From Escherichia phage vB_EcoM_G8, in the sequence record NC_054915.1: DNA of 64,000 nt, one strand, 5' to 3'. The translations under genes and the position numbers were made by a program. Below are positions 25,375-57,000 of this stretch, in pieces. The notes below the pieces were generated by a model that did not search any database, was not told the DNA's origin, and saw only the letters and a list, made by a program, of their open reading frames with translations. Each line of letters begins with the position of its first letter. Position 1 is the first letter of the stretch.

Positions 25375-25381
25375 TTTGTGT

Positions 25382-25435
25382 TCCTCATGTTATGTCAGTA
25401 AGACTACTATAACACAACACGAGGGACTTGTAAAC
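25382..25435 (-). repeat. 54-bp promoter/stem-loop cassette, copy 1 (upstream of alt.-3)
   Basis: 53/54 identical to 37822..37875; minus strand GTTTAC-N18-TATAGT, arms CCTCGTGTTGT / ATAACATGAGG, SD GAGGA. Confidence 0.9.
25406..25435 (-). promoter_or_regulatory. sigma70-type early promoter (GTTTAC -35, 18-nt spacer, TATAGT -10)
   Basis: Minus strand GTTTACAAGTCCCTCGTGTTGTGTTATAGT. Confidence 0.6.
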
Positions 25436-31510: not shown

Positions 31511-31797
31511 TAGAACCTCATCTGAAAACCATGCGATTTAACATTACCGCCACCAATATCAGAGATATTAATTTCGCGCGCAATTGAAGGGTCAATGTCA
31601 ATTTCGCGATTGAGTTTAGTGATAGCTAAAGTATCGCGCCCATTTACAGTACGAAACTCTAAAGGACAAACCACATCAACGTAGTTTTTAATCGATTCGC
31701 TAGTAGGTTGCAAATGTGCAGGAAGGTCTTTAGGCGCCTTTGAGAAAACAACTTCACAGAAATTTTTGCGGGTATCAAAATAAGTAGTCATAAACAT
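31510..31797 (-). CDS. hypothetical protein
   Basis: Track ORF 189 aa extends through a hairpin; ATG 31797 after GAGGAAA gives 95 aa (MFMTTYFDTRKNF…). Confidence 0.55.
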   Translation of the reverse strand: MFMTTYFDTRKNFCEVVFSKAPKDLPAHLQPTSESIKNYVDVVCPLEFRTVNGRDTLAITKLNREIDIDPSIAREINISDIGGGNVKSHGFQMRF

Positions 31798-31933
31798 AAC
31801 ATTTTCCTCAATAGGGGCCGAAGCCCTTTTCTTTTGTTTGTATAAGATAATACTATCACAAAGGAACCGTACTGTAAACAACTTTGTGCAATCTTTGGAA
31901 AATAAAAAAAGGACTCCCGAAGGAGTCCTCAAC

Positions 31934-34841: not shown

Positions 34842-34902
34842 TTTGTTTTCCTCATTTGTTTGGTAGAGCTATAATATCACAACTCTACCGTAAAGTAAAC
34901 TA

Positions 34903-37814: not shown

Positions 37815-37821
37815 CATAAAG

Positions 37822-37875
37822 TCCTCATGTTATGTCAGTAAGACTACTGTAACACAACACGAGGGACTTGTAAAC
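37822..37875 (-). repeat. 54-bp promoter/stem-loop cassette, copy 2 (upstream of alc)
   Basis: 53/54 identical to 25382..25435; single A/G difference at 37849. Confidence 0.9.
37846..37875 (-). promoter_or_regulatory. sigma70-type early promoter (GTTTAC -35, 18-nt spacer, TACAGT -10)
   Basis: Same cassette as 25406..25435 with weaker -10. Confidence 0.5.
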
Positions 37876-47589: not shown

Positions 47590-47937
47590 TCAATACGGTT
47601 TAGCATCAAATTTTCTCTCAATTTCAGGCGTGAAATATAATTCTTTACCGCGTTTGGAAAAGCGACCAATAATATGATAATTATTCTCATCAAACGTGAT
47701 ATTACCAATATCCATAGCTTTCAACCAAATATCGATATTTCTATCCAGCTTTATGTCAAAATTCCAATACGGAGAACTATTACCGAAAATACTGCAAGCG
47801 GATTCAGTGAAACAACTGCTATAAATCTTGTCTTTAGGAACTACTAATTGATAGACACCTTTAATAAACTGAGGACCCTGCCACTTTGGCTGTTTCGCGT
47901 CTTTTTCTAATAAAATAGGGTAATAATTAAAATTCAT
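47590..47937 (-). CDS. hypothetical protein in frd-td insertion cassette
   Basis: ATG 47937 gives 115 aa MNFNYYPILLEKDAKQPKWQGPQFIKG…; no recognisable motif. Confidence 0.6.
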   Translation of the reverse strand: MNFNYYPILLEKDAKQPKWQGPQFIKGVYQLVVPKDKIYSSCFTESACSIFGNSSPYWNFDIKLDRNIDIWLKAMDIGNITFDENNYHIIGRFSKRGKELYFTPEIERKFDAKPY

Positions 47938-47957
47938 ATTTTCCGCCACGCGTTATT

Positions 47958-48778
<821 letters not shown>

Positions 48779-48787
48779 TATATTTCC

Positions 48788-49030
48788 TCAAACAGACTTT
48801 TTCACAATTTTCCAATCAGCTTTAAACTGTTCAACGTCAGAATGGTAAATCCAGAATCCTGCGCTTTCTCCATCCTCATAAAGAGGGCATCCATCACATT
48901 CATCTTCCCATCCCATATCACGCAAAAGACGTTCAGCTTTTTCAACAAGTTCAGAATCTTTACCAATAATATTAAAATACCATTTACCTCTAACTTCTGA
49001 ATCTTTGATACTCTGGCGTTGTAATCTCAT
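48788..49030 (-). CDS. hypothetical protein
   Basis: ATG 49030 after AAGGAGAATAAA gives 80 aa MRLQRQSIKDSEV…; track N-terminal extension covers a promoter/stem-loop. Confidence 0.55.
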   Translation of the reverse strand: MRLQRQSIKDSEVRGKWYFNIIGKDSELVEKAERLLRDMGWEDECDGCPLYEDGESAGFWIYHSDVEQFKADWKIVKKSV

Positions 49031-49055
49031 TTTATTCTCCTTAGTTGATAAGGCT

Positions 49056-49085
49056 ATAGTATCACTACCATAGCCTGTTGTAAAC
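49056..49085 (-). promoter_or_regulatory. early promoter with embedded palindromic stem-loop
   Basis: Minus strand GTTTAC-N18-TACTAT; palindrome GGCTATGGTAGTGATACTATAGCC (49052-49075) spans spacer and -10. Confidence 0.55.
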
Positions 49086-49087
49086 AA

Positions 49088-49348
49088 TTATTTTTGAATT
49101 TTATCGAGCCACTTACCAAGCTTAATCATTTCTTTAGTAGCCTTTTCCATACTTCTGAACTTAACCAATAGAGGATAGGTATCGACACCCATAACTAAAC
49201 TGGTTACAAGACTGTGTTCACCCACAAGCCATAACGAATACGTTTGAATATCGAGCCCGTAATTTCTGTCTTTATGGACCCGTACACCCATCACTTCAAA
49301 TTTCTCACTAGCTTTTTCTACCGCATCCAGGAAATCATCTTTAGTCAT
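49088..49348 (-). CDS. hypothetical protein
   Basis: ATG 49348 (after TAAGG) gives 86 aa MTKDDFLDAVEK…; track start 49390 lacks SD. Confidence 0.5.
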   Translation of the reverse strand: MTKDDFLDAVEKASEKFEVMGVRVHKDRNYGLDIQTYSLWLVGEHSLVTSLVMGVDTYPLLVKFRSMEKATKEMIKLGKWLDKIQK

Positions 49349-49349
49349 A

Positions 49350-49730
49350 TTAGGCCTTAAAAGTTTTTCGCAAAAGTTCAATGATTTCATCTACATTATT
49401 TTCGTCAACAATGCAGTGAATTTTTGTTACGCCATAAACCTTGTCTTTGACTTCATCTTCTTCAGAAGTCGGTTCTTTATACTCACGAAAACAATGAAAT
49501 TCGTCTTCGCAAATTTCTAAAAGTCTATCTTTGAGGTAAAAATGCTTTCCATTTGCACATTCAATGTGTTTTACTGCTTTATATCCATTAGCGACGGAAA
49601 CTTCTTTAACTTCAAACCATCCTCCATTCTCTCGAATGGCTTTAACTATTGATGAATTAGAACGTGGGCTATAATTAATAAATGTATCAATAAGTCTTGG
49701 AACAAGTTCATACTTTTTACCGGTATACAT
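49350..49730 (-). CDS. hypothetical protein
   Basis: 126 aa, SD GAGGAAA, preceded by stem-loop. Confidence 0.6.
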   Translation of the reverse strand: MYTGKKYELVPRLIDTFINYSPRSNSSIVKAIRENGGWFEVKEVSVANGYKAVKHIECANGKHFYLKDRLLEICEDEFHCFREYKEPTSEEDEVKDKVYGVTKIHCIVDENNVDEIIELLRKTFKA

Positions 49731-50045: not shown

Positions 50046-50075
50046 ATAGTACCATGGAAGGACAAGAATGTAAAC
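50046..50075 (-). promoter_or_regulatory. early promoter (GTTTAC-N18-TACTAT) just after gene 32 terminator
   Basis: Minus strand GTTTACATTCTTGTCCTTCCATGGTACTAT. Confidence 0.5.
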
Positions 50076-53932: not shown

Positions 53933-53962
53933 ATTATATACCATCCAAATCTTAAAGTAAAC
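53933..53962 (-). promoter_or_regulatory. early promoter for rnh (GTTTAC-N18-TATAAT)
   Basis: Minus strand GTTTACTTTAAGATTTGGATGGTATATAAT, about 30 nt upstream of rnh ATG. Confidence 0.65.
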
Positions 53963-54007: not shown

Positions 54008-57000
54008 ATGGCCGAGATTAAAAGAAAGTTCAGAGCAGAAGATGGTCTGGACGCAGGTGGTGATAAAATAATCAACGTAGCTTTAGCTGATCGTACCGTA
54101 GGAACTGACGGTGTTAACGTTGATTACTTAATTCAAGAAAACACAGTTCAACAATATGATCCAACTCGTGGATATTTAAAAGATTTTGTAATCATTTATG
54201 ATAACCGCTTTTGGGCTGCTATAAATGATATTCCAAAACCAGCAGGAGCTTTTAATAGCGGACGCTGGAGAGCATTACGTACCGATGCTAACTGGATTAC
54301 AGTCTCATCTGGTTCATATCAATTAAAATCTGGTGAAGCTATTTCGGTTAACACTGCAGCTGGTAATGACATCACGTTTACTTTACCATCTTCTCCAATT
54401 GATGGTGATACTATCGTTCTCCAAGATATTGGAGGAAAACCTGGAGTTAACCAAGTTTTAATTGTAGCTCCAGTGCAAAGTATTGTAAACTTTAGAGGTG
54501 AACAGGTACGTTCAGTACTAATGACTCATCCAAAGTCACAGCTAGTTTTAATTTTTAGTAATCGTCTGTGGCAAATGTATGTTGCTGATTATAGTAGAGA
54601 AGCTATAGTTGTAACACCAGCGAATACTTATCAAGCGCAATCCAACGATTTTATCGTACGTAGATTTACTTCTGCTGCACCAATTAATGTTAAACTTCCA
54701 AGATTTGCTAATCATGGCGATATTATTAATTTCGTCGATTTAGATAAACTAAATCCGCTTTATCATACAATTGTTACTACATACGATGAAACGACTTCAA
54801 TACAAGAAGTTGGAACTCATTCCATTGAAGGCCGTACAACAATTGACGGTTTCTTGATGTTTGATGATAATGAGAAATTGTGGAGATTGTTTGACGGGGA
54901 TAGTAAAGCACGTTTACGTATTATAACAACTAATTCTAATATTCGTCCAAATGAAGAAGTTATGGTATTTGGTGCGAATAACGGAACAACCCAAACAATT
55001 GAGCTTCAGCTTCCTACTGATATCTCTGTTGGTGATACTGTTAAAATTTCCATGAATTACATGAGAAAAGGACAAACAGTTAAAATCAAAGCTGCCGGTG
55101 AAGATAAAATTGCTTCTTCAGTTCAATTGCTGCAATTCCCAAAACGTTCAGAATATCCGCCTGAAACTAAATGGGTAACTGTTCAAGAATTAGTTTTTAA
55201 TGGCGAAACTAATTATGTTCCAGTTTTACAACTTGCTTATATAGAAGATTCTGATGGAAAATACTGGGTTGTACAGCAAAACGTTCCAACTGTCGAAAGA
55301 GTAGATTCTTTAAATGATTCTACTAGAGCAAGATTAGGCGTAATTGCTTTAGCTACACAAGCTCAAGCTAATGTCGATTTAGAAAATTCTCCACAAAAAG
55401 AATTAGCAATTACTCCAGAAACGTTAGCTAATCGTACTGCTACAGAAACTCGTAGAGGTATCGCAAGAATAGCAACTACTGCTCAAGTGAATCAGAACAC
55501 CACATTCTCTTTTGCAGATGACCTTATCATTACTCCTAAAAAGCTGAATGAAAGAACTGCTACAGAAACTCGCAGAGGTGTCGCAGAAATTGCTACGCAG
55601 CAAGAAACTAATACAGGTACTGATGATACTACAATCATTACTCCTAAAAAGCTTCAAGCTCGTCAAGGTTCTGAATCATTATCTGGTATTGTAACTTTTG
55701 TATCTACTGCAGGTGCTACTCCAGCTTCTAGCCGTGAATTAAATGGTACAAATGTTTATAATAAAAACACTAATAATTTAGTTGTTTCACCTAAAGCTTT
55801 GGATCAGTATAAAGCTACTCCAACACAGCAAGGTGCAGTAATTTTAGCAGTTGAAAGTGAAGTAATTGCTGGACAAAGTCAGCAAGGATGGGCAAATGCT
55901 GTTGTAACGCCAGAAACGTTACATAAAAAGACATCAACTGATGGAAGAATTGGTTTAATTGAAATTGCTACGCAAAGTGAAGTTAATACAGGAACTGATT
56001 ATACTCGTGCAGTCACTCCTAAAACTTTAAATGACCGTAGAGCAACTGAAAGTTTAAGTGGTATAGCTGAAATTGCTACACAAGTTGAATTCGACGCAGG
56101 CGTCGACGATACTCGTATCTCTACACCATTAAAAATTAAAACTAGATTTAATAGTACTGATCGTACTTCTGTTGTTGCTCTATCTGGATTAGTTGAATCA
56201 GGAACTCTCTGGGACCATTATACACTTAATATTCTTGAAGCAAATGAGACACAGCGTGGTACACTTCGTGTAGCTACACAGGTCGAAGCTGCTGCAGGAA
56301 CATTAGATAATGTTTTAATAACTCCTAAAAAGCTTTTAGGTATTAAATCTACTGAATCGCAAGAAGGTGTTATTAAAGTTGCAACTCAGTCTGAAACTGT
56401 GACTGGAACATCAGCAAATACTGCTGTATCTCCAAAAAATTTAAAATGGATTGTGCAGAGTGAACCTACCTGGGCAGCTACTACTGCGATAAGAGGTTTT
56501 GTTAAAACTTCATCTGGTTCAATTACGTTCGTTGGTAATGATACGGTAGGTTCAACACAGCCATTAGAATCATATGAGAAAAATAGCTATGCAGTATCAC
56601 CATATGAATTAAACCGTGTATTAGCAAATTATCTGCCGTTAAAAGCAAAAGCTGTAGATAGTAATTTATTGGATGGTCTAGATTCATCTCAGTTCATTCG
56701 TAGGGACATTGCGCAGACAGTTAATGGTTCACTAACCTTAACCCAACAAACGAATCTGAGTGCCCCTCTTGTATCATCTAGTACCGGTGAATTTGGTGGT
56801 TCATTGGCCGCTAATAGAACATTTACCATCCGTAATACAGGAGCCCCGACCAGTATCGTTTTCGAAAAAGGTCCTGCATCTGGGGCAAATCCTGCACAGT
56901 CAATGAGTATTCGTGTATGGGGTAACCAATTTGGCGGCGGTAGTGATACGACTCGTTCGACAGTGTTTGAAGTTGGCGATGAAACATCTCATCACTTTTA

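Follow-up and report, generated by a model that had tools for sequence, protein, structure and literature searches.

The window analyzed here is a stretch of 64,000 nt from the Escherichia phage vB_EcoM_G8 (NC_054915.1), a T-even (Tequatrovirus) phage, and our subject is the early promoter of the gene frd.1, where an earlier reading of the same DNA (the original prediction) had noted a palindrome across the spacer and the -10 element. All coordinates are window positions, and minus-strand promoters are named by the first base of their GTTTAC element (e.g., 49085), which equals the start coordinate of the original prediction plus 29. The promoter lies in the td-frd-32 early region on the minus strand, where the genes td, frd, frd.1, frd.2, frd.3, and gene 32 are found as in T4. 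A search with 1.3 kb around it matched 616 phage records with identities of up to 97%, nearly all of them Escherichia, Shigella or Yersinia T-even phages. The first gene served by the promoter is frd.1 itself (48788-49030, minus strand), which encodes an 80-residue protein of the DUF5417 family beginning MRLQRQSIKD. On its other side lies an open reading frame (ORF) of 100 codons without a T4 counterpart (49088-49390, minus strand), whose TAA stop (49090-49088) is separated from the GTTTAC element by a gap of 2 nt. This ORF would be included in read-through RNA from the promoter of frd.3 (50075).

The frd.1 promoter and the hairpin within it

The GTTTAC element (49080-49085, minus strand; canonical hexamer TTTACA at 49084-49079) is followed by the spacer AACAGGCTATGGTAGTGA (49062-49079) and the -10 hexamer TACTAT (49056-49061). 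Transcription is predicted to begin with the A at 49049, the seventh base after the -10 hexamer when T4 numbering is applied (-10 at -12..-7; PMC1524935), giving a 19-nt leader before the frd.1 ATG. The Shine-Dalgarno (SD) sequence GGAG (49037-49040) lies within GGAGAATAAAA, and the 25 nt upstream of the -35 element are 76% A+T and UP-like. The distance of 18 nt reported for this family is exact when counted from GTTTAC, but in the canonical sigma-70 register (TTTACA, 17-bp spacer, TGn, TACTAT) the hexamer is shifted by one base and the spacer is the usual 17 bp.

The pattern GTTTAC-N18-TAnnnT has eight exact matches in the window, all on the minus strand, against 0.98 expected, and none of 100 shuffled windows reached eight. 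A generic sigma-70 scan was not discriminating (48 found against 39.9 expected); only the T4-specific pattern was informative. The eight comprise all five sites originally listed (25406, 37846, 49056, 50046, and 53933) and three more (31850, 34871, and 54461), and the proposal that they are early promoters was borne out, in that the pattern is that of the published T4 early-promoter consensus (GTTTAC at -36..-31, TGn, -10 and UP-like region; PMC1524935; PMC2988021) and every site has a T4 ortholog. At 49085 the features of a T4 early promoter (Pe) are all present: GTTTAC with the canonical spacing to a TAnnnT -10, the extended -10 TGn and an A/T-rich UP-like region (features as in PMC2988021), the appropriate orientation, an early ORF downstream, and orthology to the GTTTAC-N18-TACTAT upstream of T4 frd.1 (AF158101 146143-146114). 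Because of the enrichment of the pattern, the TGn and AT-rich upstream sequence, the placement of GGAG and ATG, the T4 frd.1 ortholog, and the consensus match, 49085-49056 is predicted to be a sigma-70-dependent T4-type early promoter of frd.1. The window family is likewise predicted to consist of ordinary T4-type early promoters, already known, with nothing new about them as promoters.

The same DNA encodes an RNA hairpin, AGGCUAUGGUA-GUGA-UACUAUAGCCU (49051-49076, minus strand), of 11 bp with one G.U pair and a GNRA-type loop. The 10-bp stem with a GUGA loop that had been described as palindromic is present as its core (GGCTATGGTA / TACTATAGCC at 49075-49052, loop GTGA at 49065-49062); as DNA, however, it is an imperfect palindrome (9/10, with one G.T), whereas as RNA it is a full stem that an additional A-U pair extends to 11 bp. 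The elements of promoter and hairpin coincide closely: the spacer contains the 5' arm, the GTGA is both the extended -10 TGn and the loop, and the -10 hexamer supplies six pairs of the 3' arm. The RNA minimum free energy is -14.6 kcal/mol for a 31-nt fold (z = -4.8; 0/200 shuffles as good) and -15.0 kcal/mol for the 26-nt stem alone, and the hairpin is retained when folded in a 91-nt context. When just the 14 variable spacer bases were shuffled, it was never regained (0/200). Rfam 15 covariance models gave no matches at gathering score in the whole window.

Since the stem lies wholly upstream of the predicted +1, the hairpin is, in the modeled transcripts, confined to the read-through isoform and absent from RNA begun at its own promoter, as the original prediction had anticipated. 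The SD (49040-49037) and ATG (49030) of frd.1 lie 10 and 20 nt past the stem. The computed probability that the segment from SD to AUG is unpaired is 0.64 in read-through RNA and 0.69 in promoter-initiated RNA, which rules out masking of the ribosome site as the mechanism of this hairpin.

Spacer pairing at other early promoters and in related phages

We compared the fold energy of read-through RNA (from the -35 element to the start codon) with that of RNA from +1, shuffling the variable spacer bases alone 200 times. No shuffle was as good at four of the eight window promoters (49085, 34900, 37875, and 25435) or at 20 of 41 candidate early promoters in the complete T4 genome. When spacers were swapped among T4 promoters, the promoter's own spacer beat all foreign ones in 16/39 cases (Wilcoxon p = 0.001). 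In minus-strand RNA of the window there are 31 local hairpins of comparable strength, three of which fall on the eight promoters against about 0.3 expected. About half of the T4 early promoters, genome-wide, share the spacer-hairpin design. The original description of one family member with a palindrome was therefore an understatement, since 34900, 25435, and 37875 also pair their spacers with downstream sequence. Likewise, the suggestion of a second stem-loop-associated promoter type in the frd-32 interval is correct insofar as 49085 differs from the stem-loop type at 50075, but the design is not special to that interval.

The hairpins fall into two classes. In the first, the stem closes 5-13 nt after the -10 element; we refer to this as the boundary class, and it comprises 49085 and 34900 in the window and the promoters of frd.1, cd.2, 30.7, ipI, e.7, ipII, mobD.2, dmd, and motB in T4 (here and below, T4 gene names were read from promoter coordinates against annotation tables). 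The hairpin of the cd.2 promoter (34862-34889, minus strand; GTTTAC at 34900-34895), whose T4 ortholog is listed in the T4 record as Pe133295, forms 12 bp around the -10 element and does not mask the ribosome site, the computed accessibility from SD to AUG being nearly unchanged between promoter-initiated and read-through RNA (0.89 to 0.78). In the second class the 3' arm is the SD of the next gene. Its window members are the long hairpins of the alt.-3 promoter (25380-25427, minus strand; GTTTAC at 25435-25430) and the alc promoter (37819-37869, minus strand; GTTTAC at 37875-37870), in both of which the spacer pairs with a downstream SD of sequence GAGG, and its T4 members precede ndd.4, 30.8, denV, regB, nrdC.8, and dexA. 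At 25435 the same computed accessibility is 0.60 in promoter-initiated RNA and 0.33 in read-through RNA, and at 37875 the two values are 0.75 and 0.35. At alt.-3 and alc in the window, and at regB, denV, and dexA in T4, the hairpin would reach the SD and silence translation from read-through RNA. The alt.-3 (25380-25435) and alc (37819-37875) promoters have an identical 18-nt spacer within a nearly identical cassette of about 45 nt.

Among 82 strong hairpins the sense fold was more stable than the antisense fold in 77 (mean difference 4.25 kcal/mol), and G.U pairs numbered 103 in sense folds against 29 in antisense. In 74 stems with a Watson-Crick core of at least 6 bp, G.T pairs extend the stem in 48 and A.C pairs (the antisense wobble) in 23, with mean gains of 2.39 and 0.53 bp, respectively. 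Single differences between close relatives are changes of A-U to G.U or of G-C to G.U. Because of this wobble asymmetry, the absence of a common arm sequence and the existence of the SD-pairing class, we conclude from the sequences that the frd.1 hairpin is an mRNA-sense RNA structure rather than an operator or cruciform.

The inverted repeat might instead work at the DNA level: a dimeric protein could bind it as an operator and switch the promoter off, or a cruciform or single-strand hairpin could modulate formation of the open complex. Its placement would suit such a role, as the repeat brackets the -10 element, where a repressor would act, and the mechanism by which T4 early promoters are shut off is incompletely understood (PMC3014915; PMC2988021). 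The sense strand also still folds as single-stranded DNA (-7.5 kcal/mol, z = -3.7; antisense -5.9 kcal/mol, where the wobble becomes an A.C mismatch). We nevertheless regard action in DNA as very unlikely. Pairing is kept although the arm sequences are entirely different from one promoter to the next and among frd.1 orthologs, and with no motif common to them a sequence-specific protein is excluded as the common explanation, which also makes the protein-binding palindrome offered in the original prediction improbable. Furthermore, the G.T positions, which are A.C on the other strand, weaken a cruciform, and in half of the related structures the partner of the spacer is an SD 25-30 nt past the start, an arrangement that is sensible only in RNA.

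A search for related loci based on Frd.1 returned only four, and the wider comparison was made instead by a DNA-pattern scan of IMG/VR and by BLAST against phage records. The IMG/VR scan for GTTTAC-N14-GTGATACTAT yielded 110 stretches with 88 distinct 48-mers. Across 193 distinct promoter-like segments, unbroken spacer-downstream stems of at least 9 bp are found in 27%, compared with 2.7% when the spacers are shuffled. Two pairing registers dominate: in the 49085 type the loop is GUGA and the -10 element forms the 3' arm, and in the 34900 type the 5' arm plus GUG, a loop AUAC, and UAU plus the 3' arm follow one another. A single consensus structure for all promoters is ruled out by these registers, of which there are at least two. 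In a set of 21 promoters with the 34900-type register, both-sided changes are found at 8/11 stem positions.

Orthologs were defined by grouping promoters on the protein they precede. The frd.1 homologs carry at least five versions of the arms (GGCTATGGTA/TACTATAGCC, GGGTTATGGT/ACTATAACCC, GTTGATAGGGTA/TACCCTATCAAC, GGAGCTATGCT/AGTATAGCTCC and, in T4, GGGTAGTAGT/ACTATTACCC), all of which form stems of 10-12 bp with energies of -14 to -18 kcal/mol. In one frd.1 ortholog a change of the -10 element from TACTAT to TAGTAT is compensated by a change of G to C in the 5' arm. The alc orthologs have three unrelated spacer-to-SD pairings with the architecture retained. A Dhakavirus-like contig shares 72% identity with the window over the frd.1 coding DNA and has unrelated DNA upstream; over the segment from promoter to ATG the identity is 95%, with an identical 24-nt hairpin. 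The window-type cassette occurs in 85 phage records, and a T4-type query was covered to at least 80% by 222 records, some of these matches being possibly paralogous promoters. We conclude that the frd.1 hairpin is under selection, as judged from these comparisons.

The complementarity could instead be functionless, a by-product of cassette shuffling and gene conversion, or of quasi-palindrome-templated mutation in T4 replication, that is carried along by a mobile cassette. The cassette does sit at indel junctions, with the upstream ORF and a T4 mini-ORF differing on either side; near-identical cassettes recur within one genome (25435/37875; T4 57990/20612), and recombination mediated by the PeSL cassettes described below is documented. 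Templated correction, however, predicts perfect palindromes on both strands, and a sense-strand G.U bias is seen instead. Pairing is also kept by many unrelated arm sequences at the same orthologous site, and the structural class (masking of the SD or not) is conserved for each downstream gene. We therefore think it improbable that the hairpin is a functionless by-product, and selection on the RNA structure is the reading that we carry forward.

The remaining members of the window family and several neighboring features are recorded here. By T4 orthology the eight promoters belong to alt.-3 (25435), 30.8 (31879), cd.2 (34900), alc (37875), frd.1 (49085), frd.3 (50075), and rnh (53962), with 54490 lying antisense in gene 34; the extended -10 TG is present at six of the eight, 53962 and 54490 being without it. 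The promoter of the 30.8 region (31850-31879, minus strand) follows an intrinsic terminator, and its spacer pairs weakly, while in the T4 ortholog the same spacer pairs with the SD. Downstream of this promoter, within 31790-31879 (minus strand), come a UUCG hairpin, GGGCTTCGGCCC, and a leader unlike that at T4 130310, an arrangement that looks like a recombination junction within the hairpin. The frd.3 promoter (50046-50075, minus strand) lies directly after the gene 32 terminator (50125-50107) and has no spacer hairpin; neither does the promoter upstream of rnh (53933-53962, minus strand). The consensus match antisense in the tail-fiber gene 34 (54461-54490, minus strand) has no start codon nearby and is kept in T4 (151291) except for one base; it is the least certain promoter of the eight.

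Pairing confined to the spacer was seen in T4. The T4 promoters 146875 and 55384 contain a perfect 14-bp palindrome, CATAAAGCTTTATG, entirely within the spacer, and 50075, the window ortholog of T4 146875, has a different spacer without it. The T4 promoters 2458 and 50973 have no spacer-downstream pairing and a small in-spacer hairpin, CCACAaggaTGTGG, that takes in the TGn. Three minus-strand ORFs of the window (48536-48778, 49088-49390, and 47590-47949; 80, 100, and 119 residues, respectively) are without counterpart in the T4 td-frd-frd.1-frd.2 interval, and the early-promoter cassette at 49085 is the junction for one of them. Between the frd.1 promoter and frd.1, T4 has a hydrophobic mini-ORF of 22 codons, MFAPYIMAAVMLVCLYLLIKAC, that is unannotated and has a GGAG of its own (approximately AF158101 146015-146083, minus strand); it accompanies the T4-type hairpin allele and is not present in the window.

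Proposed role of the frd.1 hairpin

We propose that the spacer, whose sequence the polymerase leaves free, has been shaped to complement the -10 hexamer together with the next four bases. The same DNA would then act as a promoter when it is DNA and, when transcribed by read-through from the frd.3 promoter (50075), as a stable 11-bp hairpin that lies past the upstream ORF's stop codon and ahead of the frd.1 ribosome binding site. Transcripts from the frd.1 promoter (+1 at about 49049) would start just 3' of the hairpin and would hence be without it. The 5' arm most often starts 4 nt past GTTTAC; measured from the stop codon the distance is about 15 nt, which would be roughly the edge of a terminating ribosome. 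A stop codon lies 2-15 nt before GTTTAC at 13/18 hairpin promoters compared with 9/23 others (odds ratio 4.0, p = 0.058).

Because the ribosome site is unmasked and there is no U tract, a boundary role is favored, and the frd.1 hairpin is likely to serve as an intercistronic stability or insulation element. It might act as a 3' cap that shields the upstream cistron after a downstream cut, which RegB acting at the frd.1 GGAG, or RNase E, could make, for instance. The translation initiation region of frd.1, GGAGAATAAAA (49030-49040), agrees at every position with GG*AGRAYARAA, the published consensus for strong RegB cleavage (PMC3014915), and a cut there would leave the upstream cistron with an end 13 nt past a stable hairpin. 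For the RNA that follows, it might likewise provide a 5' cap or insulator, the A/U-rich UP region before it being a plausible target of RNase E whose cleavage would place the hairpin at the new 5' end.

The position of the hairpin at the boundary of two early transcription units would also suit a weak terminator or attenuator that halts or lessens transcription arriving from frd.3-frd.2 where the frd.1 unit begins, a task that in a PeSL cassette (described below) falls to the stem-loop upstream of the promoter. PeSL stem-loops are reported to terminate (PMC2839356), overlap of promoters and terminators is reported to be common in bacteria (bioRxiv 10.64898/2026.08.19.745784), and promoters that follow a canonical terminator (50075; T4 163673, 58780, and 55384) are mostly without spacer pairing. 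The stem at 49085, though, is followed by UUAUCAAC, with no U tract, and the other members have A-rich sequence at this point. The terminator scan, which detects the gene 32 terminator, makes no call at the frd.1 hairpin, and the contingency table of hairpins against terminators (2/16 against 4/16) is not significant by inspection. The geometry is also unlike that of the promoter-coupled terminators described below. An intrinsic terminator is ruled out by the lack of a U tract, and we consider even a weak attenuator unlikely.

Taking everything together, we hold it to be reasonably probable that 49085 is an early promoter of frd.1 whose spacer and -10 element double as a selected hairpin of the read-through RNA, one that likely marks an intercistronic boundary. 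Several points weigh against this. The link between hairpin promoters and the stop codon of an adjacent upstream ORF is only of borderline significance. By inspection, the strong RegB consensus is not found downstream of other hairpins of the same class, which makes the RegB link weak, and because the consensus is not general to the class we keep RegB as one possible cutter only. The IMG/VR set was picked by a pattern that contains GTGATACTAT and includes some non-promoter matches. The set of 21 promoters was chosen for pairing, which makes its percent-paired figure circular and leaves only the diversity of pair types informative. The identity of the cassette across genera could mean recent transfer rather than constraint, and the bonus for GNRA loops may explain part of the energy gap between sense and antisense folds, although the counts of G.U, G.T, and A.C pairs are independent of that bonus. 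Finally, no published transcript, RNA-end or RNA-structure data were found for vB_EcoM_G8 or T4, and the T4 omics papers gave no 5' or 3' ends for frd.1.

A wider possibility, which we put forward tentatively and judge to be less probable than the local one, is that spacer hairpins form a genome-wide control layer in T4-like phages, in which the spacers of about half of the early promoters are under selection at the RNA level and all read-through RNA carries a structural mark at each internal promoter. One class (alc, alt.-3, regB, denV, and dexA) would then silence the ribosome site of the next gene, and the boundary class (frd.1, cd.2, ipI, ipII, dmd, and motB) would govern the processing or stability of polycistronic early RNA. 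The boundary class is apparently uncharacterized, and its frd.1 member points to an unstudied intercistronic element.

These proposals would mean that, in a very compact phage genome, the encoded RNA limits the sequence of promoter spacers, and that a phage can by simple means handle the immediate-early RNA of a gene, begun locally, differently from its delayed-early RNA, made by read-through. For the SD-masking class, such a device would explain how translation of toxic or regulatory early genes (alc and regB, for example) could be limited to the short period in which their own promoter is active. Comparative promoter logos miss this constraint from RNA pairing, and T4 early-promoter spacers are not to be treated as neutral in promoter engineering. 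If the genome-wide reading is true, promoter DNA systematically doubles as an RNA element, and the spacer is not neutral.

Comparison with known systems

Stem-loops ahead of early ORFs were already noted in sequence papers of the 1980s, and we do not claim that the general pattern of spacer pairing is unreported. Among the open T4 reviews (including PMC3014915, PMC2988021, and PMC1524935) pairing of the spacer with the -10 element or downstream RNA of early promoters goes unmentioned, the older subscription literature and the 2003 genome review lying outside that scope. As promoters, the window sites agree with T4 Pe (sigma-70 "uber" promoters with UP, -35 GTTTAC, TGn, and -10) in consensus, spacing, strand, and position before early ORFs.

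The association of early promoters with stem-loops is known from the PeSL (early promoter and stem-loop) cassettes of T4-like phages, in which a GC-rich terminator stem-loop stands just upstream of an early promoter (Arbiol 2010; Comeau 2014). These cassettes lie at indel junctions of hyperplastic regions, and the frd.1 cassette is also such a junction: upstream of it is frd.2, frd.3 or the 100-residue ORF, and downstream is the mini-ORF or frd.1. The PeSL stem-loop, however, is an upstream terminator, whereas the stem at 49085 is made of the spacer and the -10 element and is without a U tract. As no terminator-like hairpin was found within 95 nt upstream or in the terminator scan, 49085 is ruled out as a PeSL; an upstream terminator of this kind is present at 50075, which is of the PeSL type, and at 31879.

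Promoter-coupled terminators (Fletcher et al., bioRxiv 2026) share with frd.1 the principle that one intergenic DNA between tandem genes serves both an upstream RNA structure and a downstream promoter. In those terminators the stem covers the -35 element, the spacer contains a T tract directly before the -10 element, and RNA 3' ends fall about 10 bp upstream of the start. The stem at 49085 departs from this geometry in covering the spacer and the -10 element and in having no T tract. A likeness of another kind is offered by the isoform-specific mRNA structures of the Bacillus subtilis sigma-B regulon, where two promoters are reported to give two 5' ends and only the longer isoform folds (PMC8208050), as is predicted at frd.1. 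That case differs in involving bacterial chromosomal genes, an alternative sigma factor and a masked ribosome site.

A further parallel is found in T4 itself, where the late promoters of e, soc, 49, and I-TevI lie inside hairpins that mask the ribosome site, and only transcripts from upstream fold, RNA begun at the internal promoter being free (PMC3014915). In these hairpins the 5' arm lies upstream of the start of the internal promoter, which is also true of 49085 (hairpin 49076-49051, predicted +1 at 49049). Their 3' arm pairs with the SD, the AUG or both, an arrangement that is seen at 25435 and 37875 and is absent at 49085. By computation, the hairpins of alc and alt.-3 therefore follow the logic of e, soc, 49, and I-TevI with an early promoter in place of a late one, and the hairpin embedded in the frd.1 promoter, with its ribosome site left open, is a variant of this known T4 device.

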